From Nemertoderma westbladi (taxonomy: Eukaryota > Animalia > Xenacoelomorpha), in contig JAUCBJ010002200.1 in NCBI GenBank assembly GCA_032718475.1, positions 17,970-81,969 of the forward strand: DNA of 64,000 bases, given 5' to 3'. Positions 1-42,279 of this stretch are shown in pieces. Within the stretch, counting starts at the first letter, position 1. Every line of letters begins with the position of its first letter. Under the pieces are notes generated by a model that was not told the DNA's origin, did not search any database, and worked only from the letters and a program-made list of their open reading frames with translations. The position numbers and the translations under genes are program-made.

Positions 1-1599
1 CCCTCCAGTAATACAACTGTACCAACCTGTACCAAGCTCCTCCAGTAATACAACTACCAACCTGTACCAAGCTCCTCCAGTAATACAACTGTACCAACCT
101 GTACCAAGCTCCTCCAGTAATACAACTGTACCAACCTGTACCAAGCTCCTCCAGTAATACAACTGTACCAACCTGTACCAAGCCCCTCCAGTAATACAAC
201 TGTACCAACCTGTACCAAGCTCCTCCAGTAATACAACTGTACCAACCTGTACCAAGCTCCTTCAGTAATACAACTGTACCAACCTGTACCAAGCTCCTCC
301 AGTAATACAACTGTACCAACCTGTACCAAGCCCCTCCATTAATACAACTGTACCAAGCTCCTCCAGTAATACAACTGTACCAACCTGTACCAAGCTCCTC
401 CAGTAATACAACTGTACCAACCTGTACCAAGCCCCTCCAGTAATACAACTGTACCAACCTGTACCAAGCTCCTCCAGTAATACAACTGTATCAACCTGTA
501 CCAAGCTCCTCCAGTAATACAACTGTACCAACCTGTACCAAGCTCCTCCAGTAATACAACTGTACCAACCTGTACCAAGCTCCTCCAGTAATACAACTGT
601 ACCAACCTGTACCAAGCCCCTCCAGTAATACAACTGTACCAACCTGTACCAAGCTCCTCCAGTAATACAACTGTATCAACCTGTACCAAGCTCCTCCAGT
701 AATACAACTGTACCAACCTGTACCAAGCTCCTCCAGTAATACAACTGTACCAACCTGTACCAAGCTCCTCCAGTAATACAACTGTACCAACCTGTACCAA
801 GCTCCTCCAGTAATACAACTGTACCAACCTGTACCAAGCCCCTCCAGTAATACAACTGTACCAACCTGTACCAAGCTCCTCCAGTAATACAACTGTACCA
901 ACCAGTACCAAGCTCCTCCAGTAATACAACTGTACCAACCTGTACCAAGCTCCTCCAGTAATACAACTGTACCAACCTGTACCAAGCTCCTCCAGTAATA
1001 CAACTGTACCAACCTGTACCAAGCTCCTCCAGTAATACAACTGTACCAACCTGTACCAAGCTCCTCCAGTAATACAACTGTACCAACCTGTACCAAGCCC
1101 CTCCAGTAATACAACTGTACCAACCTGTACCAAGCTCCTCCAGTAATACAACTGTACCAACCTGTACCAAGCTCCTCCAGTAATACACCTGTACCAACTT
1201 GTACCAAGCCCCTCCAGTAATACAACTGTACCAACCTGTACCAAGCTCCTCCAGTAATACAACTGTACCAACCTGTACCAAGCTCCTCCATTAATACAAA
1301 TGTATCAACCTGTACCAAGCCCCTCCATTAATACAACTGTACCAACCTGTACCATCCCCTCCATTAATACAACTGTACCAACCTGTACCAAGCCCCTCCA
1401 GTAATACAACTGTACCACCCTGTACTAAGCTACTCCATTAATACAAATGTATCAACCTGTACCAAGCCCCTCCATTAATACAACTGTACCAAGCTCCTCA
1501 ATTAATACAAATGTATCACCCTGTACCAAGCCCCTCCATTAATACAACTGTACCAAGCTCCTCCAGTAATACAACTGTACCAACCTGTACCAAGCTCCT
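1..1599. repeat. 37-bp tandem satellite (left part, runs off window edge)
   Basis: Unit ctcctccagtaatacaactgtaccaacctgtaccaag repeated with variants; interrupted at 1600 by LTR element E1. Confidence 0.99.
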
Positions 1600-2777
1600 T
1601 GTTCGCGCTTTCAGACCTTTGGCAGTTTAACCCGCCAAATTAAAATGTCTTCTAGATATTAAATCGCTTTTTAGCCTATGACAAGTATTTGATTCACTAC
1701 ACTAGTCGAAACCAATCTGTGCGCGATCATTCACCCGCTGGATATTCCCGGGAGATTGGGTTCGACGGTTTAATTTTATTGCTATGTAAGCCTAATGTAT
1801 TATTCGACTGACAGTATTATATAATCTCTGACAATATTATTCACCTTAGGGAATATTAACAGTTCCTTTAGGACGTGGCGCTTTATTTATATAAACAGAG
1901 TTATGACTTAAACTACTCACAACGATATGGCTTAATTATAATTCACATATATGGCGCATTCTTTAGGAAATGCTTCTTTAACAGACTCACTCGTACACAA
2001 TGCTGCACAATACTGCACACTAATCTGCCAATCTTCACTGATTTTAGTCACATATAAAAGGAACACAGACTGACTCATGTAGGGTCTATCAAATAACATT
2101 AGATTCACTTCAAACCACTTTAACATAAGTCACAATCGTTATAGGTAACCTTTCTCTCTTACCTTCGGTATATCAAGAATATTGGGTTTTCGGGGTTATT
2201 TCTCGTTATTCCAATATAATAATTCATCAACAAATATAATGAATAACCGACAACAAATAGCAGTATACAGTATTGATTGAGCAGGTAATTTTTAGCAGTG
2301 AGATATTCAAGTGATTAAAAGCCAGTTAAAGGATATATGTCCTTATAATTAAACCTACTAGTGTTGAGCTAAAAAGCAGAAAGCACAAAACACTAAAAAG
2401 CCGTTCTTTCGTGGCTTTGAAAAACTCGTGACTACTACTCTATACGAGGATACCAACTACCCTTATTCCACGAAGCTCCCGTTCAACACAGAGAAAGAGC
2501 AGTGAGATAGGAAAATTTCAGTTCAGTAGCTCTGTGATAGGTCAAAATCAAGGCTAACTCAAATTCTATTGGGAGATACAAAAACAAGGCTATGACGCAA
2601 CCTTCCTAGGCTGGTTGGCCGATTAAACAGAGCCCAGATACCTGCGTACAGCAAATCAGCCAATAAGCTGGTAGCTTGCACTATTTTAGCTATAGATCCC
2701 CTTGAGAGTATTCTAGCGACCGGGGGGGAACTGGCCAGCAAAGCAAACGAACCAGTTATACCACAAAAGCTTTTACA
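1600..2777 (-). repeat. E1 3' LTR (1178 bp)
   Basis: Direct repeat of 16439-17619; on the minus strand it is preceded by the short purine-rich tract GGGAGCGG (2778-2785), also seen before the E2 3' LTR. Confidence 0.97.
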
Positions 2778-2855
2778 CCGCTCCCAGAAAATGGGATTTA
2801 AGTCTATAAAATATACAAAATCACAGTTTCTAAAATATAAAAATACTCTAAACAG

Positions 2856-6026: not shown

Positions 6027-9000
6027 TTAAGTTGGGGAGTCCCTAGATGTCGGTTGGATTAGGGAAGTGGTCGTGGGAAGAGTTTCTTGCCTTCCATAGT
6101 TTCCGGAGAGCTCTCTGTCTCTTTCCAGTAAACATAAACGTCCCACCGGGCGATTGAGATGTTGAGTCTCAAAGACTATCCCTGGTTTCTTAAAGTTACG
6201 TCGCATGACGACGAGTTCTACGGATCGCACCAAACCATCGCTCGAGATATGAGTCTCGATGATACGTCCTGTTTGCCATCGCTTACGTGGGAGATCGGGG
6301 TCCACAATAAGCACCATGTCTCCAGCGCTGACGTTTTCTTGCTGCGCAAACCACTTAGTTCGAAGTTGTAGAGTGGGCAGGTAATGTTTCTCGAAATGGT
6401 CAGCGAAACGACGGGATAGCAACTGCATAAGTTGCCAGGTTCGACGGCAGTACTCGTCTCCGTCTGTGATCTCCGATCGTGGGAGCATGGCTACGGGTTT
6501 CTTCAGTAGAAAGTGCGCGGGTGTTAGCGCTTCCAGGGAATCAGGACTTGAAGAGACTGGCATAAGCGGTCTTTCGTTGAGATAAGCGGCGATTTCCTCC
6601 ATTAACGTCCGCAATAGTTCGTCGGTGAGATAAGCGCGACAAGGCACAATAAAGTGGAACGCAGTCTTCACGCTCCTAATCAATCTCTCCCAACTTCCTC
6701 CCCACCAAGGGGCGTCGGCGGCGTTGAAGGTCCAGCTAGACGCTGTTATCCTTAGCTGATCGTCCACCTGTCTTTTGTTCCAGTCCTTTACGTAAGCTTG
6801 AATTTCGTTGTTGGCGCCAATGAAGTTCGTTCCCTTATCCGATCTCATCGTGTTACTGGTTCCGAAACGAGCGATCTGTCGTCGTAAACTCAACACGAAG
6901 CTGTTGGTGGATAGATCGTTTACCATATCGAGATGGATAGCTCTACAAGTCATACAAACGAAGATGACACACCATCTCTTGACTATAGTCCGGGCACGAT
7001 ATACTTCAATAGGGCCAAATAAATCCACACCGGTATTAGTAAAGGGTGGTTCATAGAAGCTTACTCTTTCCCTAGGTAATTCTGCCTCTCGCTGTGTTAA
7101 AGGCCTACTGAATGCTTTCCTACAGGGTATGCAGTTCCTAAGAACTTGGTTCAGAGCCCTACGGGGTTTATAAAAATAGTAGCGAGTTCGAATTTCGCTC
7201 AGAACTCGTTCTCTACCAGCATGGTACAGTTTGCTATGAACATCTACAATTATCTTGATTTGTATGTCAAGATTTCTAATGAGGATGGGAAACTTAGTGT
7301 CAAAGGATAATGGGGCGTTGGTCAGTCTACCTCCAACACGTATTAACCCATCTATCATGGTACTAGAGAAGCGATCCCTTAAGCGCATCTGTGGATTTCT
7401 TAATAACAGGAAATACTTATCGGAATCCTCATAGCATTGTAGGAGTCTCAGCATCTGTTTGTTGGTTTCATCATGCTCCTGGTAGCTGATCTTCTCCTTT
7501 AGAAACCTGTCGGATACCTTGTATTGGGGAAGATCTTTAACAACATGGACTCGTGCAGATGTTGATGGAGCATCATCACTATGGGTCTTTGTCCCGGAGT
7601 AACGATGATGAAAACATCGTTTTAGATAGGTGACAGCTTTACAGAGCCGATTCCAGGAACTGTAGTGACGTATCGCTCTCTGCAAGAGAGGTGAGAGTCC
7701 TTGCGAAATATCTGGTATTCCAGATTTCCAATCCTTGTCACGGATTTCCAAGACTTCTTTAGTCGTGGCAGTGGGTTTCTGATCCAAAGCATCATCTCCG
7801 GAAGTAAATAATACAGATAGATCAACCGCAGGCTTAAACAACTTCGATTTACTCGCTCGAGTTTTGGGTTTAACTTTCTCCGCTCCCTTGGCCTGTCTGA
7901 TCTCTGCTGTTGTGAGATGGGGTGGCCATTCTTCTTCTTCTCTGTAGAGAAAGTCAGGTCCTCCTAACCATTCGGGAGTATTTACCAATTCCTTTGGAGT
8001 CGCTCCCCGGGAAGCGATGTCTGCTGGGTTAATCGTTCCGGGGCAATGTCTCCATTGGTCCATCGTCGTGCGACTAAGTATGATGGCTACCCTGTTGGTA
8101 ACGAAGACGCTGAACTGACAGACTTCATTGGTTATATACTCTAACACGAGTAAAGCGTCGGTCCAATAGACAGTTTTCTCTAATGTATAGTCAATCTGTT
8201 CGGTTACATTCCGGCCGATGGCTGTAGCGTATAGAGCCGCTTTTAACTCCGCTCGAGGAACTTTCAACTTGTTGTTGATTAATGCCTTAGAAGTAACCAA
8301 GGCGACTTTGATTCCATCCGGAGTTTCCACTCTTAGGTAGGCTACTATACCTATTCCCATATCGCTGGCGTCTCCAAACACACGGAGTTGATAGGAATAC
8401 GTAGGGAGAACATGACCAAAATATGAACGGGAAATTATAAAATCCTCGATAGCCGGCAGAGAATCTTCCCATTTCATCCACTTCTTCAATAATTCTCCCT
8501 TAAGTGGATCGTCCCATGAGTGGTTTTCAAGCCACATTTGTTGTACCAAACTACGAGCAATCAATATAACTGGGCTAATAAATCCCAATGGATCGAAATA
8601 AGTGCTCAGTATACTTAAGCAAATCCGTTTGGTTCGAACTAGATTATCTCGCTGTTTTAGCTGGAAAAACAGGATATCTCGCTCTGTGTCCCATTTCAAG
8701 CCGAGTGTCTTGGTTTCTGGCAGATCATCTTTGATCAAATCGAGATCTTTCGCTCCTCGATCTTCCGCAGGGATCGACTCCAGAAACTCACGGGAGTTGC
8801 TGGTGAATTTCGTTAATCGAAACCCACCTCTTTTTAAGCACTCTACCGTTCCTTTAGCGACCTCAATGGCTTCCTCAACTGATGGGAGGGACTTCAGATT
8901 GTCGTCCATGTATATGTCTCTCTTGATGTTGTCGATCACTTCCTTAGAGAATGCCTCTCGGTTGTCCTCTGCAGTAGTACGCACTACCGAACAGGCGTTG

Positions 9001-12000
9001 GAAGGGCTTGAGATTATCCCAAAGGCCTGGATGGTCATCCAGTACTCCACCGGTTTCTGGTTGAGGTCTCCTTCGGGCCACCACAGAAATCGTAGACTAT
9101 CTCGATCCCTATCTAACACCTTGACTTGTAAGAACATGCCTTCTATATCGGAGGCGAAAGCAATCGAATATTGTCTCAATCTTAAAAGAATCCCCAACAA
9201 AGATTGAAGCAAGTTGGGTCCGGGTAACAATTCAGAGTTAAGGGATTGACCCATGTAAAGAGCGGAGCCATCAAACACTACTCTCACTTCGTGTGGCTTA
9301 CCGGGTTTAGGAACGTAATGGTGAGTTAAGTAATACGTTCTTTCAGTCACAGATGTTTCTTCCGGTACTCTCTCCGCGTATCCCTTACTAATAAATTTTT
9401 CCAGCTGTGTTTGATACATTGCTTTAGCTGAAGAATTAGCCGTAAGGCGTCAATGGAGTTGCGCGATTCTTTTTTCCACCAAAGGTCTGTTATTGATGAA
9501 CTTCGGTTCTTTCTTGCGGAAAGGTAGACCGACTTCATACCTACCTTGATCTTTGAGGAAACGTGTAGTTGTCTCTTGGATCTGCTTGGCCCTTTCCTCT
9601 TCCACCGACAAGGCTTTATCGTAGGAATTGGGCTCTACCGCCTCTTGCGTAAAGAATCGTACGGCATGTTCATCCCGAATCTTGGCATTATGACGCTCAA
9701 TGACGTCATTTAACTCGTCGTTATAAGCTTCTCGTTCAGATGGATAGAGAAGTTGACATAAGTTCACTTGGTTTTGCCAAGCCTCGTTTTCCTTAAGGAG
9801 ATCGATGGTATTCTCCTCATCAAAAAGCTGGTGAACGTCGTCATTATCTGAGGAGTATGGAATTCCCTCAGTTGAGTTGTCTCCCTCACTGGTATCATCT
9901 TCCCATTCACTCACCTGGCATACGCTCTCTGGCGGTAGTCTTTCTCTGAGTGTTCTACGGGAAGGGCCAGTAAAGTACCAACCTACTCTAGTTCTTACCG
10001 CATAGGTCTGTAGTGGCTGCGGTTGAGCAGGCCGTTTCTCTAATGTCTCCAGCGCCTCATGCGCGTTTTGGCCGATGAGTATTTGCACTCCAGGATAATC
10101 AGTCTGGAATCGAGGTATGTTAAGATGTTGGATGCTCTCATCCTCGTCCCAATTATATAGGTCTGCTTGAGTAGTAGCGAAGTTCTTTATAGCCACCATT
10201 TTCACTGACCTTATGCTATGTTCTCCTAGTTCGTCTTGTGGGGTGGACAACGCGCCTACATAATAATCAGCTGTTATTGTAGATTTCCAAACTTGCATAA
10301 TGCCTGACATGTTGAGCTTAGTTTGGAACTTGGGTTGTCCAGCAAATATATCTTCGGCTAGCTCTTTGTCGATGAATGTTCCTGTACTACCGGAGTCAAG
10401 GAGGGCGTTCACTACATAACTCCTCTCAGGTCCGTGAACCCTTACTTGCACCACAGGAAACTCTCGGATCCCTACATTGGAAGATGGCTCTTTCCAAGAT
10501 GGTTGTCGCTCAGAAGTAGTTAGAGTAAAGTCGTTATCTGTATCTTTTTCATATGTGAGTGCTCGATACACTGCGGTATTTATCATGTAACAGGATTCGT
10601 TTTCGTCGGAGAACTCGTCTGTATAGAATCCTTCCATCTCAGATTGATCAGTGTCGTTCACATCACTGAATTGGACATGTAGCTCGGAATCACTCACCTG
10701 ATTCGGACTATTTCGATCGAATTCAGCGTGCAACAAGATATGATGTTTCGCACCACACTTTGCACACCTTATGTCAGAGAAACAGGTTCGCCGTTGGTGT
10801 CCTTGTCTGAGGCAATTATAACATAACCGCTTATCCCACATGACTTCGCGTCTCTCCGTTAATGATTTCTTTAGAAATTCATCACACCTATTCAAATGGT
10901 GGATCCCGTCACACAGCGCACATTTTGGTTTGATGTTACTTACCTTATTCTGAGTCACATTGTGTACACTTGCCTTTTCTTCGGGCTTTCTCACCTGAAT
11001 TCTCTTGGGAGACGTGGGAGGAGTTTTTCTTACCTGTTCTCTCCTTTCATTTGCTCGAGACTTGAATTTACTTACCTGATCTTTAGGCATTTTATTGACA
11101 TAATAAGATCTATCAGTGTCTTTCCCGCTATCTTCTCCTTGGGAAGTCTGGCTTTCGCCGTCGTCTGTATAACACACTGGTGTTACCTTTCTCCTAGAGA
11201 CGGGTTTTTCACTTACCTTGTTTTCCGGTGTCTTCTCTCGGGACTGCTTGAGGAGTTGCAATTTCACTTCTCCATCCAAGAATGACATGAGATCAGCCAT
11301 GGTAGGGTCTCGTCGTTGTTGTTCCATCATATATAGTACTTTCTTATCCCAGCGTGTGCCTACCCCACCTTTCGGTAAAGTAGAAGCCACAGCTCCAATG
11401 ACCATAGAACTTTGGTATTCATGAGACTTACCTAACCAATCTAATTGTCTACAGATCTCTTGAATCTCATCGGAAAACTCTATTATCCCACTGCTGATGA
11501 ACTTTCTGGGCGCTACTAATTTTGCATATAAATACTTAGCGATATTATTCTTATTACCATACCTGATGTTTAGTGTGTCCCAAACTTGTCTTAATCCGTC
11601 TGGATGTCCAATAAACTTTAACGCCATTAACTTGGGAGATCCTTCCAAGCACTCGATGAGGTATCTAAGTTTTTCTCCATTAGATAGTACAGAGTTCTGT
11701 ATGTTATCTTTGTAATATTCATTAAAAGGTAACCATTTCATCTCATCTCCATTGAACTTGACGATCTCTCCCACCTTTACCGCTTGCCGGGCTTCGGTTC
11801 TAGCCATTTGACGCGTAAAACTTTCTTGGGCCATCGTGTTATTTAATATCGAGTTATCGGTATATAAATTTCTCGGATTATGATCAGTTCTATAGGGATT
11901 GTCATTATCAACAGGTCTATAATTACCCTTAATAGGGTTCACTATAGGAGTTTCTACTTCGCTAGCAGTATATATGCGTGTAGGCTCCACACCTTGCGCA

Positions 12001-14177
12001 TGAGATACTTCAGACCTAACAGGTTGACACATTGTTACAGAGGGTGGCGGTATACCCTTTTGAGTATTTACTAATTTATCGCGTTCTAGCGCGATACTTT
12101 GCTGCACTTCTTGCAACTCTAGCCTACTTTCCCTTACTGTGCCCTTGAATTGCTGGACAGTCTCCTGCATCTGCCCGAGCAGGATATCCATCCCCCGCCG
12201 TCTCTCGTCCACCCATTCGACCGCCGAAGCGGGAGTCGCCAACGTTGTAGCGGGCGGACGAGGGACAACGGGCGACAAATTATGAATATTTCGCTCGGGG
12301 TCCAGGACCTGAACTGTCCCCTGGGCAGTTCTACTGGGCACAGGTAGCTTAGTGCTATGCAGAGGGAATTTAGAGGTAGTTTCAGGGAGCACAGGTGTGT
12401 CTATCACCGAAGGGGTGATTTCAAGAACAGGCCTAATTATTTCAGGCTCATCTACTATAGTAGGGAGTCTTTCTATTTTAATTATTTGGTCTGTGGGCTC
12501 TGTACTACCTAAGTTGGTGTTATTTAGTTGCCTTCTAACAGCTGGAGGCAAATCAGGCAATTTCTGACGGTGGAATGTTCTTTTACGTCTGCTTAGACGA
12601 GATCTATTTCCTTTGCCTTCAGTATCGGTGGTATCGCCTTCCTCAGATGATGTATATCCCTGTCTTTTGGGAGTAGATCGATTCATCATCTGCATATTAC
12701 TAGCTGTTAACTGTTTATTTATGCAGTCTTGATTCTCTTGAATGTTTTCCAATTCTAATTGGGTGGTTTCTTCAGTCGCTCTCCGTTCGGCTTCTGCCAC
12801 TGCCTCTGCGGCCTTTCTCTCAGCCTCGGCCGCCTTTGCTTCTGCCGCTGCCGCTGCCGCTGCTGCTGCTGCTTTTGCCTCTGCCTCTGCCACTGCCGCT
12901 GCCGCTGCCGCTTTTGCCTCTGCCGCTGCCGCTTTTGCCTCTGCTGCTGCCTCTGCCGCTGCCGCTTTTCTTTCTACTTCTGCAGCTACCACTGCTGCTT
13001 TCTTTCTGTCTTCTATACGTTTTTTCTTTACTTGTTCTTCTTGGGCTCGTGTGATGCGGAGTTGTTCATCAAATTCAGCCTGGTTCGCAGCCCTCATTTC
13101 CACATCGATGGCATCCAACACAAGCTTGGTTCCTTCACTATTAGGGTTAAGTCCCTCTAACCTTCTCCTCAACTCGTCATCACCTAAAAAACGTTGATAG
13201 TCTGACAGATAGATGTCAATGGCATCCCTCTTATGCGGTTTCTCTGCCGTCGCTTCACTTTCCACTTGGGAAAAAGTAGCGTCTGTTGATTCTCCATGGG
13301 TTGATCGCTCCTCCAGCTGAGCTTTCCACTGAGCTGTTCCTTGAACCTGGAGATTCACCCTTTGAAACCAAGTCTTTACGGCGACTTGCAACGACGTGTC
13401 TTGTCTTCGTTTAGAAGCCTCCTCAAAGGCCGATAATATTAGCCTGATTCGTAGAATTCTTTCTCTCACTTGATAAAGCAGTTGTCCCTGCTCTTGAGGT
13501 CCTTGTGGTTGTTGAAACAGTTGTCCTTTTACTCGCTCCATAGAGCTGAAGAATCCCTGTGCGTATCCGGCTGCGGACCTCTTCCACACAGCGGGATCGA
13601 TGGTTTCCTTGGCTACTCCCATCCGGTGTATGTCTTCCCAGGCAGCTTCTGATAAATCAAACGGGAGTCCGGGTCCGGGGAAGTTCCATTGCGACTCGAC
13701 CATGGACTTCAGTTCTTCCCTTGTGTATCCAGCATAACTATCTCTAGTTGAACGCTGGCTTCTCGCCCAATCGATCTGGTGTTCTTCCACAGCGATCAAT
13801 AACCTGGTGAGTACGGCTGCAGGAAGGATGAGAAGGGGATCCGTATAAACCGCATCCGTCATCTTTGCTCCGCGCTCGGGTGTCAGCTCTACAGTATCTT
13901 CACTACTGGAGCTGTTGGGCCGTTGAGAAGTAAGTTCTTGGCTCGCGGGTTGTTGCTGTTCTGCTGCTTCTTGGTCCCGCTTGACCTGAGCTCGAGTGCC
14001 TATGATAGACCTACGATGTTGGACCAGCCTAGGTTCTGTTATTACTACTGGAGGGATGACCTTCCTCACAGTGGGAGGTGAACTGAACTTACGACTAGAT
14101 GGTTCTACGCCTCTATCTGAGTCACAGATAGTCACATCTAATATACTGTCTGACAGGTTCTGCTTAGTATCAGACAT
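6027..14177 (-). CDS. BEL/Pao Gag-Pol polyprotein (~2716 codons) with one in-frame TGA at 9450-9452
   Basis: ORFs 9450-14177 and 6027-9419 are in the same frame (AQLH*RLTANSSAKAMYQ). Three BEL-type Zn knuckles (CALCDGIHHLNRC, CYNCLRQGHQRRTC, CAKCGAKHH), protease LLDSGS, RT YMDD, RNase H FGDASD, integrase HHCC/DLFGP/SDKGTNF/WERLIRSVK. Confidence 0.96.
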
Positions 14178-15529
14178 GTTTATGTATACAGTTGAATGTC
14201 TACTGCTGTATCACAGTCTGAGCAAGTCTAGTAACTCAGTATTAACTGCTAGCCTAGTAATTAATTACCGGTACTGCTACTCAGTGTAGCGTGATATATA
14301 ATATATTAGAATACCAGTATGCTTATAGTATATATAACTATTATTACAGACTAGGTTTATCACCGAATACCGGTATAATTTTAGCACAAATATATATAAA
14401 TATATAATAGGCCTATCGTGGATACCGGTATGCAGTTTACACTTATAGTGTATATATATAAGTATAATTACAGACTAGAATTAATTACAGAATACCGGTA
14501 TGATTTCAACCTAAAATTTATAGAAATAAATATAATAAGCCTATTGTAAATACCGGTATGTCAATTATTTTAGAATAATTGAATTTCTGAATTTTAAGGG
14601 TTACTTGGTTACTTTAACTTACTTTATTACCGTTATTTAAGCAGTAGTCCAACTGATATTGAGACCTAATGGTTTTATGGTAGGCCTACTATTTATAAAT
14701 CGTTAGATTTGATTTATAATATATATATACCCGTTTTAATGGGTTTGTCAATGTTTGAAATAAATGTTATTATTTCTGGGGAGTAATCACTACACAAAGC
14801 GGTGCGCTTTCAGTGAAGTGTTACTTATAGGACACTAAAACAAATAATACTAATTTACCTAAGTTACTTAATACTACAAATTACGTACAATTCGGGTGAG
14901 ATTACAATCTCTAAATAAACACAAAAATTTACAAAACGCAAAATACGAATTTTTTAGGGTAATTTTACAAGAAGTCTACAAACCAGCCTAACAAAGGGTT
15001 AGAATTCTGGTTATTACAACGGACAGGGTACTACGGTATTTGAAAATAATACTTAGTAGTAAATACACTGCGTTGTCCAGATAGAAAAATACCACCGCCT
15101 GACGACCTATAGCCGTATCGCTATAGGTTCTACGTTATGTATCACGGAGTGTTCCTACCTAGAAGTTAATAGAGCTAATCGAACGTGCCTATCAACCACT
15201 TTACAACACAAATATAATGCCTACACTAATTACTCTCGGAAAGCACTGTACACTAAACCCTAAATTAGGTACGAGTACTTGTACAACAGATAATCAGTAG
15301 TTAAATATACTTGAACAGCTAAAAGAACCACGGCATCTGCTGGAGTGACCGATGCACAAAATCACCAGTCTTTACCTACGCCAAGCAGCCCGTGTAGTAC
15401 CGGGGTTAATTTAACTATAGCGGTATGTATAACAAACACAATTACTGTAGGAACAAACTTGGGGAATGAATGTTGCGAATAATCGCATAAACTCTGAATA
15501 ATAAATATTACGCTACGCGTACAAACTAC

Positions 15530-16080: not shown

Positions 16081-16426
16081 TGATCAGGTTTACACGCCTT
16101 CTGTTCAATACTGGCCTACAAATAAATAAAACTTGACAGAAATAAGTAAACCATATAAAGGAATAAGGGGTGATCAATCCCTAATCCCTCAACAGCCTAC
16201 CGGTATGCAACAATCAAATCGAATAATACTAGTGTACTTATACGGAAGTACCGGTTAGGACAGCTAGGCCTAAGGACCTACAGAAGTACCGGTTCTGGCA
16301 GTTGGACCTACGGACCTACGGCAGTACCGGTTCTGGCAGTTGGGCCTACTGACCTACAGATGTACCGGTTCAGGTTTACCGGTTGACCGGTACTTTCAAC
16401 TTTATTGCTTACTGCAATAAAGAAGC

Positions 16427-16438
16427 TATATCCTTTAA
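16427..16438 (-). promoter_or_regulatory. E1 non-tRNA primer-binding site TTAAAGGATATA
   Basis: Abuts the CA end of the 5' LTR; no TGG; exact complement of LTR 12-mer at 17168-17179 (also 2326-2337). Confidence 0.75.
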
Positions 16439-17619
16439 TGTTCGCGCTTTCAGACCTTTGGCAGTTTAACCCGCCAAATTAAGATGTCTTCTAGATATTA
16501 AATCGCTTTTTAGCCTATGACAAGTATTTGATTCACTACACTAGTCGAAACCAATCTGTGCGCGATCATTCACCCGCTGGATATTCCCGGGAGATTGGGT
16601 TCGACGGTTTAATTTTATTGCTATGTAAGCCTAATGTATTATTCGACTGACAGTATTATATAATCTCTGACAATATTATTCACCTTAGGGAATATTAACA
16701 GTTCCTTTAGGACGTGGCGCTTTATTTATATAAACAGAGTTATGACTTAAACTACTCACAACGATATGGCTTAATTATAATTCACATATAATATGGCGCA
16801 TTCTTTAGGAAATGCTTCTTTAACAGACTCACTCGTACACAATGCTGCACAATACTGCACACTAATCTGCCAATCTTCACTGATTTTAGTCACATATAAA
16901 AGGAACACAGACTGACTCATGTAGGGTCTATCAAATAACATTAGATTCACTTCAAACCACTTTAACATAAGTCACAATCGTTATAGGTAACCTTTCTCTC
17001 TTACCTTCGGTATATCAAGAATATTGGGTTTTCGGGGTTATTTCTCGTTATTCCAATATAATAATTCATCAACAAATATAATGAATAACCGACAACAAAT
17101 AGCAGTATACAGTATTGATTGAGCAGGTAATTTTTAGCAGTGAGATATTCAAGTGATTAAAAGCCAGTTAAAGGATATATGTCCTTATAATTAAACCTAC
17201 TAGTGTTGAGCTAAAAAGCAGAAAGCACAAAACACTAAAAAGCCGTTCTTTCGTGGCTTTGAAAAACTCGTGACTACTACTCTATACGAGGATACCAACT
17301 ACCCTTATTCCACGAAGCTCCCGTTCAACACAGAGAAAGAGCAGTGAGATAGGAAAATTTCAGTTCAGTAGCTCTGTGATAGGTCAAAATCAAGGCTAAC
17401 TCAAATTCTATTGGGAGATACAAAAACAAGGCTATGACGCAACCTTCCTAGGCTGGTTGGCCGATTAAACAGAGCCCAGATACCTGCGTACAGCAAATCA
17501 GCCAATAAGCTGGTAGCTTGCACTATTTTAGCTATAGATCCCCTTGAGAGTATTCTAGCGACCGGGGGGGAACTGGCCAGCAAAGCAAACGAACCAGTTA
17601 TACCACAAAAGCTTTTACA
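16439..17619 (-). repeat. E1 5' LTR (1181 bp)
   Basis: Direct repeat of 1600-2777 with TG...CA ends. Confidence 0.97.
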
Positions 17620-20600
17620 CTCCTCCAGTAATACAACTGTACCAACCTGTACCAAGCTCCTCCAGTAATACAACTGTACCAACCTGTACCAAGCTCCTCC
17701 AGTAATACAACTGTACCAACCTGTACCAAGCCCCTCCAGTAAGACAACTGTACCAACCTGTACCAAGCTCCTCCAGTAATACAACTGTATCAACCTGTAC
17801 CAAGCTCCTCCAGTAATACAACTGTACCAACCTGTACCAAGCTCCTCCAGTAATACAACTGTACCAACCTGTACCAAGCTCCTCCAGTAATACAACTGTA
17901 CCAACCTGTACCAAGCTCCTCCAGTAATACAACTGTACCAACCTGTACCAAGCTCCTCCAGTAATACAACTGTACCAACCTGTACCAAGCCCCTCCAGTA
18001 TTACAACTGTACCAACCTGTACCAAGCTCCTCCAGTAATACAACTGTACCAACCTGTACCAAGCTCCTCCAGTAATACAACTGTACCAACCTGTACCAAG
18101 CTCCTCCAGTAATACAACTGTACCAACCTGTACCAAGCCCCTCCATTAATACAACTGTACCAACCTGTACCATCCCCTCCATTAATACAACTGTACCAAC
18201 CTGTACCAAGCCCCTCCAGTAATACAACTGTACCAACCTTTACCAAGCTCCTCCATTAATACAAATGTATCAACCTGTACCAAGCCCCTCCATTAATACA
18301 ACTGTACCAACCTGTACCATCCCCTCCATTAATACAACTGTACCAACCTGTACCAAGCCCCTCCAGTAATACAACTGTACCAACCTGTACCAAGCTCCTC
18401 CATTAATACAAATGTATCAACCTGTACCAAGCCCCTCCATTAATACAACTATACCAAGCTCCTCCAGTAATACAACTGTACCAACCTGTACCAAGCTCCT
18501 CCAGTAATACAACTGTACCAACCTGTACCAAGCTCCTCCAGTAATACAACTACCAACCTGTACCAAGCTCCTCCAGTAATACAACTGTACCAACCTGTAC
18601 CAAGCTCCTCCAGTAATACAACTGTACCAACCTGTACCAAGCTCCTCCAGTAATACAACTGTACCAACCTGTACCAAGCCCCTCCAGTAATACAACTGTA
18701 CCAACCTGTACCAAGCTCCTCCAGTAATACAACTGTACCAACCTGTACCAAGCTCCTCCAGTAATACAACTGTACCAACCTGTACCAAGCTCCTCCAGTA
18801 ATACAACTGTACCAACCTGTACCAAGCCCCTCCATTAATACAACTGTACCAAGCTCCTCCAGTAATACAACTGTACCAACCTGTACCAAGCTCCTCCAGT
18901 AATACAACTGTACCAACCTGTACCAAGCTCCTCCAGTAATACAACTACCAACCTGTACCAAGCTCCTCCAGTAATACAACTGTACCAACCTGTACCAAGC
19001 TCCTCCAGTAATACAACTGTACCAACCTGTACCAAGCCCCTCCATTAATACAACTGTACCAAGCTCCTCCAGTAATACAACTGTACCAACCTGTACCAAG
19101 CTCCTCCAGTAATACAACTGTACCAACCTGTACCAAGCTCCTCCAGTAATACAACTACCAACCTGTACCAAGCTCCTCCAGTAATACAACTGTACCAACC
19201 TGTACCAAGCTCCTCCAGTAATACAACTGTACCAACCTGTACCAAGCTCCTCCAGTAATACAACTGTACCAACCTGTACCAAGCTCCTCCAGTAATACAA
19301 CTGTACCAACCTGTACCAAGCCCCTCCAGTAATACAACTGTACCAACCTGTACCAAGCTCCTCCAGTAATACAACTGTATCAACCTGTACCAAGCTCCTC
19401 CAGTAATACAACTGTACCAACCTGTACCAAGCTCCTCCAGTAATACAACTGTACCAACCTGTACCAAGCTCCTCCAGTAATACAACTGTACCAACCTGTA
19501 CCAAGCTCCTCCAGTAATACAACTGTACCAACCTGTACCAAGCTCCTCCAGTAATACAACTGTACCAACCTGTACCAAGCTCCTCCAGTAATACAACTGT
19601 ACCAACCTGTACCAAGCTCCTCCAGTAATACAACTGTACCAACCTGTACCAAGCTCCTCCAGTAATACAACTGTACCAACCTGTACCAAGCTCCTCCAGT
19701 AATACAACTGTACCAACCTGTACCAAGCTCCTCCAGTAATACAACTGTACCAACCTGTACCAAGCTCCTCCAGTAATACAACTGTACCAACCTGTACCAA
19801 GCTCCTCCAGTAATACAACTGTACCAACCTGTACCAAGCTCCTCCAGTAATACAACTGTACCAACCTGTACCAAGCTCCTCCAGTAATACAACTGTACCA
19901 ACCTGTACCAAGCTCCTCCAGTAATACAACTGTACCAACCTGTACCAAGCCCCTCCAGTAATACAACTGTACCAACCTGTACCAAGCTCCTCCAGTAATA
20001 CAACTGTACCAACCTGTACCAAGCTCCTCCAGTAATACAACTGTACCAACTTGTACCAAGCCCCTCCAGTAATACAACTGTACCAACCTGTACCAAGCTC
20101 CTCCAGTAATACAACTGTACCAACCTGTACCAAGCTCCTCCATTAATACAAATGTATCAACCTGTACCAAGCCCCTCCATTAATACAACTGTACCAACCT
20201 GTACCATCCCCTCCATTAATACAACTGTACCAACCTGTACCAATCCCCTCCAGTAATACAACTGTACCACCCTGTACTAAGCTACTCCATTAATACAAAT
20301 GTATCAACCTGTACCAAGCCCCTCCATTAATACAACTGTACCAAGCTCCTCAATTAATACAAATGTATCAACCTGTACCAAGCCCCTCCATTAATACAAC
20401 TGTACCAAGCTCCTCCAGTAATACAACTGTACCAACCTGTACCAAGCTCCTCCAGTAATACAACTGTACCAACCTGTACCAAGCTCCTCCAGTAATACAA
20501 CTACCAACCTGTACCAAGCTCCTCCAGTAATACAACTGTACCAACCTGTACCAAGCTCCTCCAGTAATACAACTGTACCAACCTGTACCAAGCTCCTCCA

Positions 20601-22692
20601 GTAATACAACTGTACCAACCTGTACCAAGCCCCTCCAGTAATACAACTGTACCAACCTGTACCAAGCTCCTCCAGTAATACAACTGTATCAACCTGTACC
20701 AAGCTCCTCCAGTAATACAACTGTACCAACCTGTACCAAGCTCCTCCAGTAATACAACTGTACCAACCTGTACCAAGCTCCTCCAGTAATACAACTGTAC
20801 CAACCTGTACCAAGCTCCTCCAGTAATACAACTGTACCAACCTGTACCAAGCTCCTCCAGTAATACAACTGTACCAACCTGTACCAAGCTCCTCCAGTAA
20901 TACAACTGTACCAACCTGTACCAAGCTCCTCCAGTAATACAACTGTACCAACTTGTACCAAGCTCCTCCAGTAATACAACTGTACCAACCTGTACCAAGC
21001 CCCTCCAGTAATACAACTGTACCAACCTGTACCAAGCTCCTCCAGTAATACAACTGTACCAACCTGTACCAAGCTCCTCCAGTAATACAACTGTACCAAC
21101 TTGTACCAAGCCCCTCCAGTAATACAACTGTACCAACCTGTACCAAGCTCCTCCAGTAATACAACTGTACCAACCTGTACCAAGCTCCTCCATTAATACA
21201 AATGTATCAACCTGTACCAAGCCCCTCCATTAATACAACTGTACCAACCTGTACCATCCCCTCCATTAATACAACTGTACCAACCTGTACCAAGCCCCTC
21301 CAGTAATACAACTGTACCACCCTGTACTAAGCTACTCCATTAATACAAATGTATCAACCTGTACCAAGCCCCTCCATTAATACAACTGTACCAAGCTCCT
21401 CAATTAATACAAATGTATCAACCTGTACCAAGCCCCTCCATTAATACAACTGTACCAACCTGTACCATCCCCTCCATTAATACAACTGTACCAACCTGTA
21501 CCAAGCCCCTCCAGTAATACAACTGTACCAACCTGTACCACGCCCCTCCATTAATACAACTGTACCAACCTGTACCATCCCCTCCATTATACAACTGTAC
21601 CAACCTGTACCAAGCCCCTCCAGTAATACAACTGTACCAAGCTCCTCCATTAATACAAATGTATCAACCTGTACCAAGCCCCTCCATTAATACAACTGTA
21701 CCAAGCTCCTCCATTAATACAAATGTATCAACCTGTACCAAGCCCCTCCATTAATACAACTGTACCAACCTGTACCATCCCCTCCAGTAATACAACTGTA
21801 CCAACCTGTACCAAGCTCCTCCATTACTACAACTGTACCAACCTGTACCAAGCCCCTCCAGTAATACAACTGTACCAACCTGTACCAAGCCCCTCCATTA
21901 ATACAACTGTACCAAGCTCCTCCATTAATACAAATGTATCAACCTGTACCAAGCCCCTCCATTAATACAAATGTATCAACCTGTACCAAGCCCCTCCATT
22001 AATACAACTGTACCAACCTGTACCATCCCCTCCATTAATACAACTGTACCAACCTGTACCAAGCCCCTCCAGTAATACAACTGTACCAACCTGTACCAAG
22101 CTCCTCCATTAATACAAATGTATCAACCTGTACCAAGCCCATCCATTAATACAACTGTACCAACCTGTACCATCCCCTCCATTAATACAACTGTACCAAC
22201 CTGTACCAAGCCCCTCCAGTAATACAACTGTACCAACCTGTACCAAGCTCCTCCATTAATACAAATGTATCAACCTGTACCAAGCCCCTCCATTAATACA
22301 ACTGTACCAAGCTCCTCCAGTAATACAACTGTACCAACCTGTACCAAGCTCCTCCAGTAATACAACTGTACCAACCTGTACCAAGCTCCTCCAGTAATAC
22401 AACTACCAACCTGTACCAAGCTCCTCCAGTAATACAACTGTACCAACCTGTACCAAGCTCCTCCAGTAATACAACTGTACCAACCTGTACCAAGCTCCTC
22501 CAGTAATACAACTGTACCAACCTGTACCAAGCCCCTCCAGTAATACAACTGTACCAACCTGTACCAAGCTCCTCCAGTAATACAACTGTAGCAACCTGTA
22601 CCAAGCTCCTCCAGTAATACAACTGTACCAACCTGTACCAAGCTCCTCCAGTAATACAACTGTACCAACCTGTACCAAGCCCCTCCAGTAAT
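17620..22692. repeat. 37-bp tandem satellite (right part), ending inside POLR3F exon
   Basis: Same unit with shorter deletion variants and higher-order blocks; the last copy is the POLR3F coding sequence ITGGAWY plus donor. Confidence 0.99.
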
Positions 22693-22854
22693 GCTACTAT
22701 CCGGGGTTAGATTGTATAACATATAAAGCTTCCTTTTGCTCTGATTTACGCTCGTAACGGCCTTTATTAACTTTTTACTCTCGAGATTTTTAAGCATCTT
22801 ATTTAGAGCCGTTAAAGTAAGTCCGTGACCGGTAGCATTTCTTATATTCCGAAC
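22670..22854 (-). CDS. POLR3F: RNA polymerase III subunit RPC6/RPC34, third coding exon
   Basis: VRNIRNATGHGLTLTALNKMLKNLESKKLIKAVTSVNQSKRKLYMLYNLTPDSSITGGAWY closely resembles RPC34 (LKNLESKKLIKAV...YMLYNL.PD.S.TGGAWY); acceptor ctctag, donor AG|GTTGGT (phase 2). Confidence 0.93.
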
Positions 22855-32460: not shown

Positions 32461-35038
32461 AGTTTGGGATTGTTATCCGATTTAAATTTATACATAAAGA
32501 AGCAACTTTATCCACAACCTGGGGCAGAAAATTTCAGAAATAAATGGTTCAACCTTATAGATAACCAAGTTAGAGTTTCATGTTTCTCCCGTGTTGATCG
32601 AGAGGATGGCCCTTGGCTAATCAAACTTCAGATTCCCAAAGCATCAAATCGACCGGTCAAAGATGACAGCAGCCCCAAGCGGCACCGGTTGGCGTGTCAC
32701 AAGCCTGAAAAGGACTTGGGCACATTGACACTAGGCGCCGCGAGGGAATGGAGGGAGCGGACGAGGATGAGTTCATTCCCTTCTGGGAAATGCTCAAGAG
32801 GGGAATCTATTGAACTGGATGCTTAATCTATGACAACGAGGGGAAGTCATCATCATTATCCAAGAAAGACACGTTGTTGCATTGCAAGGAGTTTCTAGAT
32901 GGCAATCGAATGTTGCTTGAACATTATGGCGATCTCCAGGCTCACAGTGCAACGTATTAAAGTGATTACCGAGATTCTGTTGTTTCGTAAACGATAAGAG
33001 GGAAAAACCCTAGATGAACGGTCATCATAGTTCTCAGTAACTTCGATGGATTGGTGTTAGTTTGTCAGATATGTCCCCCCTGATTCGATTCGGATCCCTG
33101 CAGAGCGATATTGATGTTACCGAAGTGTGTCTGCAAACTGATCCTGGATGATCTGGTCACCAAGATCGGGTCAAATATTAAGACGGATCTGCTGACTGAC
33201 TATGACGGAGCTCCTACCCAATGAGAGCTTATAAAGGATATAGAGATGCTTGATAACTTCATTGACACCCAAGATGTTGTTGTCGCGTGGTTGCGCCGAG
33301 GTAACTGCATGCAAACGTTTAAAGATATTAAACCGGGGAGAACTAGTCTCGGATATCTGGCGTTACTGCTTTACGGTATCGACTTTAAACCAGCTTCCTT
33401 TAAGAACTGTACAAGAGATTATCTATACCCTCCTCAGTGGATCGACTCTACATAAGATCCTCGATGGAAGGAGGTCGACTGCTCCTGGGATTTATATAAG
33501 ACATGGGAAAAACCTACCATCTACCACTACATCTATGTGATGATGGTGTTGCTGATGGTTGTGAGGTTTATGTGCAAAACGCTAAAAACTCTAATCTATA
33601 TACAACCCACTTTATAATAGAAGTTTGGATGGAACGTCGTTATGGAACACGCCTTCCTACCCATCGCCGATATAGTCCCCAAGGAGGTACATAAGGGTCT
33701 ACCATTCGATATCTGGACTCGCCACGGATTGAGGGATATTGGAACAATGGAGGATCGGTTGAAGCCTATGGTTCTGGAGACTTCAATGGACGATGAGGAC
33801 GTTCTTCCAGACATCGAATCAAGAAACGGAAATCCTCCCCGATAGTGCTTAACATCCCAAGGCCCAAACGAATGGTGGCGAGCGAGCCTGAAAAGGATTC
33901 GAGCACCATTGTTCTGCTTGGGCTGAGGAGCCCTGCGATCGAGTCAGACGACAAGAAGGCTTTCCGAAGCTTCGGCAACAGTGCGTCGTCTTGTCTCCCT
34001 ATCGGTTTCCTGGATGAGAGGAGTGGGACATGGAGATATCTTGCGGCTCCGATTGGTGCACTACTTCCAACCAACTTACGTCACGCGGGATAATGGTTCA
34101 CACATCTCCTTTCATCGCCACGCCGCCTGAAGAACTTCCGGACTTAAAGCAGGTGGTTGCACTATGGCCCGATGGTGGCATCTAATGGCTGGAGGTTACG
34201 CAAATAACGCCGGAGGTTATGCGAATAGCGACGCAGGTTACTCAGGATCCTATGAGAGTGACTCGATGGTATCTGGAACAGACTAAGTGGGTTAGCCAAC
34301 AAACCAACTACATACAGCAATGCCCGGCTGGCTATCAACATGGCTTCCATATAGAATATGCGGACCAGACACCTCTACATGAAACACATATCAAGCATTC
34401 CGTTCCATAAGGAATATAAGAAACTACGTTTTCAGGAGGGAGATCAACTACCCATATACTACGGGACTCCAGAAACTTGGGATGTTTGTAGTAAATGTGG
34501 ATCGGAACAATGCCCGTGTTATGCCGAAGGTTTACATGAACTCTGTCAGGCCAAAATGGGTATGTTATACTGTATATATTGCGCCAAACCAGGACACGAT
34601 ACCTGAGTGTGTTCATCACTTTGTTCCATATATCACATATGTGGATTCCGTGGACACCATTCTGATAGAAAAGGAAACATCAAGTGTCCGGCTAAAGATA
34701 AGTTAGCAACCTCCAATATGTTGATGTTTGAAACATTTGCCAACTCACACATCAAAGTGAGGGGACGTTATAGCCAAACCAAGGACGGCCGGGAGATGTC
34801 AAAGGGATATTTCACCTTCCTGGAAACCCTTGCTACCAGAGAACAGCTATCCTTCAAATACAAGGACCTCATTCTCTCAGCCACGATGTTCGGTCCTACC
34901 GAGGTTATTTGTCGCTTGTATTCCTATGATGAAGATGCCGGAGACGTGAAGTGGCTCCTGATCACTAGGGAAGGGGAGATAGACAGACGTTATGAGCTCG
35001 AATACGGTGAGCCCAAGTTGAACCACGTCGCTAAATGA
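32461..35038 (+). pseudogene. Divergent decayed homolog of BEL/Pao ORF3 (exonuclease-like plus Zn knuckles)
   Basis: Across frameshifts: LIYDNEG (~32829), LPKCVCKLILDDLVTKIGSNIKTD (~33115-33190), FIDTQ, SLGYLALLLYGIDFK, then CSKC...CIYCAKPGH..VC..ICGFRGH, collinear with E2 ORF3 motifs. Start boundary approximate. Confidence 0.8.
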
Positions 35039-35187: not shown

Positions 35188-36241
35188 GTAGAGGTGGGGT
35201 TCGTGGCACACTGCTGATGAGGAGAACCACGAATCCCAGGGTTCAGTGTTTAAATCTCCGAAACCCATTTATTTTTATAAAATTTATTACTTAGACTTAC
35301 CTTTTCGGCGGACAAAATGTCCTATATTTTTCGTAATTTATGGGATAGCCTATTTCGTGCAATATTTACCGGAACCTGTAGTTACTGTATGGTTTGGTGC
35401 AATTTTTCTTGTGGTAGTTGGGTTGGGTTATGTAGCACTAAAATCGATTTGGTATTTTGTGTTTTTTGATGGGCCTAGTGCCTGAGTACTAACAGTGGTC
35501 CAAGTGGCCCTAAATGCTAGGTAGTATCTGAGGGAATAGACCCCATGTCCTATTTTATTGTTTTAATATTAATATTACAATCCCTCTAAAGTCGTGGTTG
35601 TCAACATCATATAATTATATATTTAAAGGGGTATTTTCTGACATCTGCGCAATTTTGTTTAAAAATCTGATCATATATCTGTACGTACATACCGGTAGGT
35701 GCTAATTGGGGTTGGTTGCATTCAGTTGGGAAATCATGTTTATGCATTTGGGGCTGATGGTAACATATATTGGGGGTGGGTGGTTTCAACTCTGTTCGGT
35801 GGTACGGTAGGATTTCTAATTTATTGGTCATTGTCTTAATTTAGTGGTGCAGTTTTGTTAGGGTAGAGGTGGGGTTCGTGGCACACTGCTGATGAGGAGA
35901 ACCACGAATCCCAGGGTTCAGTGTTTAAATCTCCGAAACCCATTTATTTTTATAAAATTTATTACTTAGACTTACCTTTTCGGCGGACAAAATGTCCTAT
36001 ATTTTTCGTAATTTATGGGATAGCCTATTTCGTGCAATACTTACCGGAACCTGTAGTTACTGTATGGTTTGGTGCAATTTTTCTTGTGGTAGTTGGGTTG
36101 GGTTATGTAGCACTAAAATCGATTTGGTATTTTGTGTTTTTTGATGGGCCTAGTGCCTGAGTACTAACAGTGGTCCAAGTGGCCCTAAATGCTAGGTAGT
36201 ATCTGAGGGAATAGACCCCATGTCCTATTTTATTGTTTTAA
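35188..36241 (+). mobile_element. Partial tandem (378-bp direct repeats, 676-bp period) with hammerhead-like motif; Penelope pLTR/retrozyme-like
   Basis: 35188-35565 nearly identical to 35864-36241; each has CTGATGA...GAAAC; third copy with inverted part at 59402-59955. Confidence 0.6.
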
Positions 36242-39814: not shown

Positions 39815-40947
39815 AGTGAGATTGCATGAAACTTAAAATAGAGGTAGAATCACGCAACTCCTGGGTGGGTCGTGGCCCTCGTGGGTGAGTCAGAATTTTT
39901 ATTTTTACTTTCAACTATTAGAGTACAAGCGTTAAAAAAAGGTCGATATTGCACCAGTTACACCATACACCGCAGTTATTCTTCAACCATATCTGCTTTT
40001 AGTAACATTCGTTGTAAAGGGAAAAAATTTACTTTTCAACCCAGAAAACGTTTATAGGCAATCAAATAAAAAATAACCAAAAGGTAATACAACATTGTTG
40101 CGCGGGTGTAACCTACATGTATTTTAAACATTATTATTGTGTGGTATTGTCAAATAATTTACAATTGTTTTTGAGTTATTCAAAAAAATCAAGTCTCCCC
40201 TAAAGTCAAGTCTCCCTCATTCTCCCTAGTGAAGGAAAGCTGGAGAAAAGGATTCCAAATATGTAGAATTTCGTTGTAAAATGCCCGACATATTCAATAA
40301 TTAGGGCGTTCAATAATGTTGCATAGTGTTGCACCTCTACGAGGCTATTTTATTCTATTAAATTTTTAAAGTTAATTAGGCCTCTAAGCCATGGAACTGG
40401 GAGTGGCACAATAAAACACGATAAAGAGAATAAATAATAAATTAAATTAAAAGCACCGTCGTCACTTAGATATACTGAAGTAGAGTTGATGAATCCGGTG
40501 GAGATTCTATTTAATAAATACAACATATTCTGGAACATTTTGTTAATGTATGAATAGCTACATAATAGTATGATTAAAGAGTTATTGCATTGTTGCCCAT
40601 CTACGTATTGATAAACAAAATGTTCCAGAATATGGTGTATTTATTAAATATAATAAAATAATCTCACAGAGGTGCAAAACTATGTAACATTTGAACGCTC
40701 ACATCTCGGCTATTGTTCAATGAAATTCAGATTGTGTTACAGATTTGGAATCCTTGCATGTTCAGCTTTCCATCCGTATGTACAAACAGATCACAATAAC
40801 GTTAAATAAAAACTTCGGTATAACTCAGGTGCAAATAACGACCGAGGCACCCTTTTTAAACGCTTTTAGCTAAAAAAATGAGAACAAAAATAAAAATTCT
40901 GACTCACCCAACCAACCCACGAGGGTCAAATTTCATGCAATCCCATT
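39815..40947. mobile_element. MITE/foldback element (~1.1 kb)
   Basis: Terminal gattgcatgaaa / tttcatgcaatc, subterminal gggtgagtcagaatttttattttt inverted at ~40885-40910, further internal inverted pairs (~40510-40545 / 40615-40650). Confidence 0.7.
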
Positions 40948-41153
40948 CAGATTTGTATAAAAACAATTTTTTTTTGGGGGGGGGGGGCAATGTAGCTGAA
41001 TAACGACACTATATTCCAGGAAATGGTGTACTACTGTACTGTAATCAGGTAGGTGTATAACAACGAGTGTAATATGAAGACTGACAGGACATTGGGAATT
41101 AACAGTTATTACATATATCCAATGACTTTTAGACAAACTGACCAATCAGACAA

Positions 41154-42267
41154 TGAAAAAGCTTTTGCGGACATAACAAGTCATTTTTACGCAATGCGCA
41201 GAATACTCTAAAATAGCCCTAAAATTGTTCAACTACGCGTCGGACAGAAATTAGAACCAAGATGACGAAATCTGTCAGCTGATTCTTTGTGTACGTGGAG
41301 ATTCCTTTGTTGAGCTTATTCAGCCAATCAGAGCAATCTTCCCAGTTATGCCAGTAGAGACCTACCTGAGGAAACTAGCGCATGCGCAGTTATCGTTTTT
41401 CTGAGAATTAGATTCCTCTCAGAATTCTGTACTAAGTACGGACGTTTCAGACTTTAGCCCAAGAACATCTGATGGCTGGAGTTATAAGGACGTAAATCTA
41501 TTAACAAACCATACGCACGTCGTACGACGCATTGCACTAAACATAACTCACCTGGAACACATACTGACTGTTCACCGCACTGTTTTAATGCTGTTTTATA
41601 TTGTGTTAATTGCTGTTTATATTAATGGATGTTATATTTGGAGAATACCGATAAATAATTGTAAACCCCTCAATCTTCTTGATTACTGAGGTAAGCGGAG
41701 GAAGAGTCTACCGGTAGCAACTGTGACTCAAATTATAGTGGTTTTTGTGTGAATTAAATGCTATTTCATAATCCCTACGTGTGTCAGTTGCAATCCTCCT
41801 TATATATGATCAAAATCAGTGACGGTCGGCAAATTAGTGTGAATTAGTGTAAATTAGTGTGAAGTAGTGTGAAGTCGTATGAAGGTTAATAAAGCATCTC
41901 CTAAAGAATGCACTATTTACGAAACTCAGTGGCCATTTAGTTGTGATTAGTGTAAGTCATAACTCTGTTTTATACTTAAAGCACCACATCCCAAAGGAAC
42001 TGTTAATATTTCCCCGAAAGTAAATATAGTTGTCAGAGATTATATAGTAGCAATCAATCGAATAATACAAAGTAGCCTACACCGCAATAACTTCCTCTGG
42101 AACCCGAATCCAGTCTCCCACACCGTGGGTCATACGCCGCGCATGGACTGGCTTCGGCAGATGTAAATTCAGTACACCAGGTAATTGGTACGGGCAAAGT
42201 CTATTCATAATTAAAAGGATATTTAAAATTGGCAGGTTAAACTGCTAAAGGTCTAAAAGCGCGAACA
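41154..42267 (+). repeat. E2 5' LTR (1114 bp)
   Basis: Direct repeat of 56395-57179; termini shared with E1 LTR (tg.aaaagcttttg...aaagcgcgaaca), U3 strongly diverged from E1. Confidence 0.96.
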
Positions 42268-42279
42268 TTAATAGATTTA
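42268..42279 (+). promoter_or_regulatory. E2 non-tRNA primer-binding site TTAATAGATTTA
   Basis: Abuts the 5' LTR end; exact complement of LTR 12-mer TAAATCTATTAA at 41493-41504. Confidence 0.75.

Follow-up and report, generated by a model that had tools for sequence, protein, structure and literature searches.

Candidate self-priming in a BEL/Pao retrotransposon family of Nemertoderma westbladi and in its distant relatives

The stretch of Nemertoderma westbladi DNA analysed here (the window, 64,000 nucleotides) holds two LTR retrotransposons of one family in opposite orientation, E1 and E2, and in both the sequence at the primer-binding site (PBS) position pairs with the element's own LTR well above chance. 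The comparison of sequences suggests, with a probability of about 0.78, that an RNA primer encoded by the element itself (12 nt of its own LTR) replaces the tRNA for minus-strand synthesis. The putative self-priming signature is widespread in related BEL/Pao elements and is not confined to the E1/E2 family.

Two elements of one family and the pairing of their PBS

The ends of the LTRs were fixed independently of the pairing, by direct repeats and 5-bp target site duplications (TSDs, Table 1). The two LTRs of E1 share 1177 identities, with one mismatch and a 3-nt gap; those of E2 show 10 mismatches, with about 330 nt deleted from one of them, and the E2 gag-pol has many breaks. The E1 proteins match DUF1759, Peptidase_A17, Integrase_H2C2 and DUF5641, which is the BEL/Pao set, and PF05380 is present in all homologues among the matches listed. 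The Gag-PR-RT-RH-IN arrangement of BEL/Pao is found with Pao-type domains and YMDD (the protease motif was read by eye). The closest database proteins are 33–38% identical near full length, and up to 44% over about half of the length. No close family member was found in the protein searches, no match to a 32-nt LTR-end pattern in viral or metagenome contigs, and no relative in pol searches of viral contigs.

Table 1. Features of E1 and E2 (positions in the window)
Feature	Position	Strand	Details
E1, whole element	17619-1600	-	about 16.0 kb
E1 TSD	17620-17624 and 1595-1599		5 bp, within 37-bp satellite
E1 5' LTR	16439-17619	-	1181 nt, TG..CA; direct repeat of 1600-2777
E1 3' LTR	1600-2777	-	1178 nt; direct repeat; own partner copy at 2326-2337
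E1 gag-pol	6027-14210	-	single frame, in-frame stop 9450-9452; domain matches, YMDD, ORFs
E1 polypurine-tract position	2778-2787	-	ends GGGAGCGG; identical in E2
E1 PBS position	16427-16438	-	no TGG; adjoins LTR
E1 PBS partner, candidate primer core	17168-17179	-	12 nt; LTR position 441-452 of 1181
Conserved TTATAAGGAC	17181-17190	-	paired RNA 5' end or TATA box; E2 copy 41482-41491
Conserved hairpin after PBS	16400-16424	-	contains AATAAA; 5' arm also target of the 7-bp extension
U5 hairpin	16456-16479	-	predicted, about 17 nt before LTR end; kept in E2 (copy by eye)
Predicted splice donor in LTR	16998-17004	-	downstream of partner; E2 donor at about the same place, 41691
E2, whole element	41154-57179	+	about 16.0 kb
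E2 TSD	41149-41153 and 57180-57184		5 bp
E2 5' LTR	41154-42267	+	1114 nt, TG..CA
E2 3' LTR	56395-57179	+	lacks about 330 nt internally; second copy of the partner at 56734
E2 PBS position	42268-42279	+	no TGG
E2 PBS partner	41493-41504	+	12 nt, from LTR position 340 of 1114
E2 extra ORF	52633-55596	+	987 aa; likely DEDDy-type 3'-5' exonuclease domain and Cys/His knuckles

An earlier note on this DNA had claimed that the family lacks a tRNA PBS and that the 12 nt abutting the 5' LTR pair perfectly with a segment of the same LTR. The four coordinates that it gave for PBS and partner are all correct. Neither PBS begins with TGG, the pairing extends over 12/12 nt with zero mismatch in both elements, and there is no offset between the LTR end and the start of the helix, which lies at the boundary as had been noticed. 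The compensation of all differences between the copies also holds: the two PBSs differ at 3/12 positions (5, 6 and 10), and each change is matched in the partner without any G-U pair, a covariation which, within the E1/E2 family, comes from two linked copies.

The partner 12-mer occurs in the 5' LTR and again in the 3' LTR (at 2326 in E1 and 56734 in E2), and is absent elsewhere in the 64 kb. In the alignment that runs from the partner to beyond the PBS, the 12-bp PBS helix is the longest helix common to E1 and E2. None of 1000 shuffled PBSs reaches 12 nt for E1, nor does any of 1000 for E2; among shuffled LTRs, 12 nt is reached in 1/300 and 2/300 cases. The LTR of E1 pairs over 6 nt at most with the PBS of E2, and the same is true of the reverse combination. 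The 12-bp core, rich in AU, forms a weak helix (−11.6 and −9.2 kcal/mol). A second long-range complement between U5 and leader, which encloses the PBS, joins 16650-16640 to 16229-16219; it is 11 nt long in E1 and bulged in E2 (by eye).

Family variants were read from contigs of public sequencing runs, with the gaps in X4 cover excluded as evidence. These contigs show that the E1/E2 family is high-copy. They diverge exactly at the 3' edge of the partner (17165-17169), and depth has a local peak in the motif bin. One variant has an extra letter at 17184 and reads TATAAA. A third PBS allele, at 16434, accounts for about 26–28% of the contig depth in two runs; if the element primes itself, a matching change of the partner is predicted, which does not appear among the variants listed.

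The rest of the window contains other repeats and genes. The target of the E1 insertion is a 37-bp satellite (1-1599 and 17620-22698), a tandem repeat of the end of an RPC34 exon with its apparent splice donor; the satellite amplifies both, and the start of the intron is therefore an array of exon-end/donor copies. A small repeat with inverted arms (35188-36241 and 59398-59964), in tandem at 35188/35863 and found again at about 59400, is probably a MITE, as is a further palindromic element at 40231-40910. Frames for a NUDIX and a DUF4504 protein, apparently intronless, lie on one strand at 60628-62302, 16 nt apart from stop to stop, and possibly form an operon-like unit.

Own-LTR complements and predicted splice junctions in distant BEL/Pao relatives

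An alignment of 17 pol proteins was used to fetch 80 metagenome loci and 26 loci from a genome collection, at 30–43% identity. The latter (L081-L106) are BEL/Pao pol loci in a collection of prokaryote genomes and are therefore probably animal DNA in bins. The end of the 5' LTR could be fixed by a direct repeat in 13/106 loci. Among them, the repeat of L048 stops at the contig end, the 5' LTRs of L001 and L095 are partial, and L033, an old element, has an uncertain end. A TGG-type PBS occurs in three of these 13 relatives (L001, L091 and L103). The other ten all have a complement of 10–12 nt in their own LTR.

This complement is contiguous, 10–11 nt long, in L033, L057 and L058. In the remaining 7/13 (L004, L028, L032, L048, L084, L087 and L095, which represent five independent families) it appears only across a predicted splice junction: a partial match begins directly after a pyrimidine-rich AG, and the rest of the match abuts a GTAAG/GTGAG donor 71–451 nt upstream, which gives 10–12 nt across the predicted junction. 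The predicted GTRAG..YAG junctions have 10–14 pyrimidines in 17 positions; the GTRAG donor rule was chosen after the junctions were first seen, and was applied equally to the controls. At the homologous donor of L084 and L087, two exon-end letters differ, and the PBSs differ to match. When the search across junctions is applied to E1 and E2, the best matches are 6 and 10 nt with any GT as donor, and 4 and 0 nt under the strict rule. A junction partner is thus unneeded in these two elements, since the contiguous 12 nt exceed the best junction match.

A cross-test of 15 elements found an own-LTR complement of at least 10 nt in 12/15, the three misses being those of the TGG type. Only 1/206 non-cognate LTR-PBS pairs reached 10 nt (related pairs left out), and shuffled PBSs reached the observed length in at most 2/1000 cases. 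The helix begins 0–3 nt from the LTR end in all 12 self-complementary elements and has 10–12 bp. With the intron kept, the exon-2 half alone pairs in the relatives with P of at most 0.03; with the intron removed, P is 0.83–0.98 at the best 5' length (0.57 for L084), and this fold support varies from 0.0 to 0.9 with the chosen 5' end. The partner lies 0–89 nt before AATAAA/ATTAAA in 9/10 relatives and after a TATA-like motif in 4/10, which places it probably in R.

A de novo scan without fixed ends gave 36 hits among 1059 candidate ends, compared to 39 among 3177 decoys; its false hits include nine from an inverted-repeat element in L095. It adds, near the start of gag and with weaker evidence, three spliced forms (L077, L085 and L097) and a contiguous one (L043). 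Equally weaker evidence comes from a scan of 18 contig heads with a relaxed donor, which produced new spliced matches in L010, L050 and L073. Of the other 15 heads, one repeats L043, one is TGG-type, two show an acceptor half (by eye) and 11 are incomplete or hold nothing convincing. The leader of L010 carries several tandem copies of a PBS-like complement (1066-1190).

The phylogenetic tree is unrooted; its 24 rows were taken from 108 sequences as those whose PBS type had been scored, after removal of near-duplicates. A 16-row clade (100/98) contains both forms, the contiguous ones nested among the spliced ones, and repeated intron loss would be the simplest reading within it. The spliced L073 is the sister of four tRNA-type rows, while E1/E2 form a long separate branch, in agreement with a quick tree of 77 rows. 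A topology that holds all tRNA-type rows together (a single split from the self-complementary rows) was not rejected by the AU test (p-AU 0.087). Because the tree has no root, it demonstrates neither that the trait arose independently in E1/E2 nor that it had one ancestral origin. Self-priming, as proposed in the earlier note, is the well-supported leading reading, the non-TGG relatives matching their own LTR only, but its independent evolution in the E1/E2 family is not established, given the wide distribution of the signature, the long branch and the result of the AU test.

Possible priming mechanisms and other explanations of the pairing

In the proposed mechanism, transcription would begin at TTATAAGGAC of the 5' LTR or immediately before it; the 12-mer would bind the PBS and close a loop of about 730–760 nt, ATAAGGA adding a 7-bp helix. 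As in Tf1, the RT/RNase H would cut immediately 3' of the 12-mer and leave a primer of about 21 nt; the RT would copy U5-R, and then jump. Plus-strand strong-stop synthesis would copy the primer back into the PBS, so that a change in the partner would be written into the PBS. A self-primer would thus template its own PBS, and full compensation would be expected without two-step selection.

Folding predictions bear on where the RNA begins. The core helix has a probability of at least 0.9 only for an RNA whose 5' end is at most 15 nt (E1) or 25 nt (E2) from the partner, and the folds predicted with about 36 nt of the LTR upstream lack it. A start at TTATAAGGAC would agree with this pattern and would give a 5' end paired throughout its length of about 21 nt. 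The motif is present before both partners, as had been noticed before. The 7-bp extension is predicted in E1 and in E2, but it competes with the conserved hairpin after the PBS and is invariant, and therefore shows no covariation. Folding favours a nearby start, but the Tf1-like 5'-end geometry is unproven, because TTATAAGGAC, 10 nt before the partner, is the only TATA-like motif that either LTR has upstream of it. The usual spacing between TATA box and start is about 30 nt. If TTATAAGGAC is a TATA box, the start would be expected some 10 nt downstream of the partner and the 12-mer would lie in U3, from where it could act only from the 3' end of a genomic RNA. A TATA-like motif is also found on the antisense strand in a conserved part of both LTRs (16891-16910 and 41795-41815), and is possibly an antisense promoter.

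Three sources of the primer share the overall probability of self-priming. The Tf1-like 5' geometry is the favoured candidate, at a little under even odds overall. Priming by a copy at the 3' end (U3) or by a second genomic RNA is rather unlikely, although a U3 copy could still prime, rather than cyclise only. It is quite improbable that a separate short LTR RNA serves as the primer.

That the pairing is structural only, with the 3' U3 copy and the leader engaged in cyclisation, dimerisation or packaging and the primer being something else, would be in line with the hairpins that flank the PBS and with the U3 location that the TATA-like motif 10 nt before it would give the 12-mer. Yet the elements offer a tRNA no TGG site, and the helix begins within 3 nt of the LTR end in 12/12 cases, at the place where a primer has to end. 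Its length of 10–12 nt matches Tf1, and full compensation is expected where the primer templates the PBS. A structural role alone is therefore improbable.

Priming by a host tRNA half or another small host RNA, the LTR match being secondary, has a precedent in the half-tRNA priming of some Ty1/copia lineages. The search for tRNAs covered the 64-kb window, in which neither ARAGORN nor Rfam gave a match and which holds no tRNA. Against this reading, a single RNA would need to match PBS variants with differences at 3/12 positions, plus the third allele. No single host RNA fits, because the PBS sequences differ among families; distant families each match their own LTR only, often across a splice junction. 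Host-RNA priming is very improbable. The same low chance is given to a match that would be a by-product at the DNA level (inverted duplication, conversion, a protein-binding site) or fortuitous. The motif is indeed AU-rich and begins with the palindrome TTAA, and the de novo scan yields false hits, but the shuffle tests and cross-tests argue against this origin, as do the seven relatives whose complement is absent in the DNA and appears only after predicted splicing.

Self-priming in many relatives would involve a primer core assembled by splicing of an LTR intron, the contiguous forms, perhaps including E1/E2, being intron losses. One LTR copy would be spliced and provide the primer, while the other would stay unspliced and the intron be inherited; which copy is spliced could depend on how the acceptor competes with the nearby poly(A) signal. 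Splicing in the 5' LTR would create the primer and favour read-through, and polyadenylation in the 3' LTR would keep the intron heritable. The layout of E1/E2 differs from that of the relatives, since no nearby AATAAA follows the partner. In the intron-less 16-kb lineage of E1/E2, the primer may come from U3, or may require trimming by an element-encoded 3'-5' exonuclease. The whole scheme, in which much of BEL/Pao self-primes, the ancestral primer was spliced from an LTR intron and E1/E2 are intron-less, perhaps with a U3 or exonuclease-trimmed primer, is put forward tentatively, with slightly less than an even chance of being right.

Both E1 and E2 have an extra ORF after pol, although E1 is without about 2.7 kb of this region (E2 52633-56316). 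The tentative assignment of the E2 product to exonucleases comes from Atlas features (0.94; 26/30 hits in PF01612 clusters) and from DNA_pol_A_exo1-like acidic motifs I–III read by eye (relative P0241, E 0.2). No Pfam hit was obtained for it, no further homologues of P0241 were found, and a single-sequence AlphaFold model of the exonuclease-like part has a pLDDT of 29. Such an enzyme could trim RNA 3' ends and is a possible primer-trimming enzyme, which is only a lead. The short pol-to-LTR distances suggest that most relatives are without the extra ORF. A degenerate remnant of a related exonuclease/knuckle ORF, with no LTR pair, lies at 33114-33338 and 34335-35038.

Comparison with known systems

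If self-priming is confirmed, many BEL/Pao elements would be tRNA-independent, though the ICTV calls the whole family tRNA-primed; they would escape silencing by 3' tRNA fragments, and PBS-based annotation would miss or mis-score them. Assembly of the primer by splicing would link reverse transcription with the host's RNA processing, a link not met in the literature searched. Cer7 of C. elegans, a BEL-type element, has reportedly been proposed to encode its own tRNA-like primer, which could lessen the novelty. The listings of open-access literature that were searched show neither self-priming of a BEL/Pao element nor a primer built by splicing. Three papers, on Sinbad (PMC554778), on a survey of BEL/Pao (PMC3118150) and on the GyDB network (PMC2774666), gave no match in term searches for a PBS or for priming, and the accessible parts of PMC3601003, PMC13524379 and PMC6934838 hold nothing on BEL/Pao priming.

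The ICTV describes Belpaoviridae with an 18-nt PBS for tRNA-Arg or tRNA-Gly and a genome of 4.2–10 kb (PMC8742986). E1 and E2 resemble this family (Semotivirus) in their LTRs of 1.1–1.2 kb (1181 and 1114 nt, in the range of 0.2–1.2 kb) with TG..CA ends, their 5-bp TSDs, Pao-type Gag/Pol and polypurine tract. They differ from it by the LTR end without TGG, and hence without a tRNA-Arg or tRNA-Gly PBS, by their size of about 16.0 kb each and by an extra ORF which is not env. The missing TGG PBS is a departure from the ICTV description, not from the protein-based placement in Belpaoviridae.

The rotifer LTR elements Juno and Vesta carry a DEDDy exonuclease as ORF3, according to the accessible part of PMC5408684. 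They resemble E2 in having an extra downstream ORF for a likely DEDDy-type exonuclease, but belong to other LTR lineages, and that part of the source makes no link to priming (PMC5408684).

The accessible parts of the sources describe or predict self-priming for Tf1/sushi, Tj1, plant Tcn1 and the Ty1/copia TAR elements Houba and Osr-1 (PMC6317226, PMC4600332). In Tf1, the RNA's initial 11 bases pair with the PBS, RNase H cuts between bases 11 and 12, and the plus-strand strong-stop DNA ends in the PBS sequence (PMC7175516). E1 and E2 share with Tf1, Tf2, Tj1 and the Tf1/sushi group, as these accessible parts present them, the absence of a tRNA PBS and a complement of 11–12 nt in the own LTR that ends at the LTR boundary (PMC7175516, PMC4600332, PMC6317226); the own-LTR complement of about 11 nt that characterises Tf1/sushi is thus found here. 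The superfamily is different, Ty3/gypsy in one case and BEL/Pao in the other, the E1/E2 domains being Pao-type and not those of a chromovirus Pol. The Tf1 primer consists of the RNA's first 11 nt, whereas in E1/E2 the predicted pairing continues 5' beyond the core; their loop measures 730–760 nt, and the core is split by a predicted intron in many relatives. E1 and E2 likely work in the manner of Tf1-type self-priming, outside the Tf1 group.
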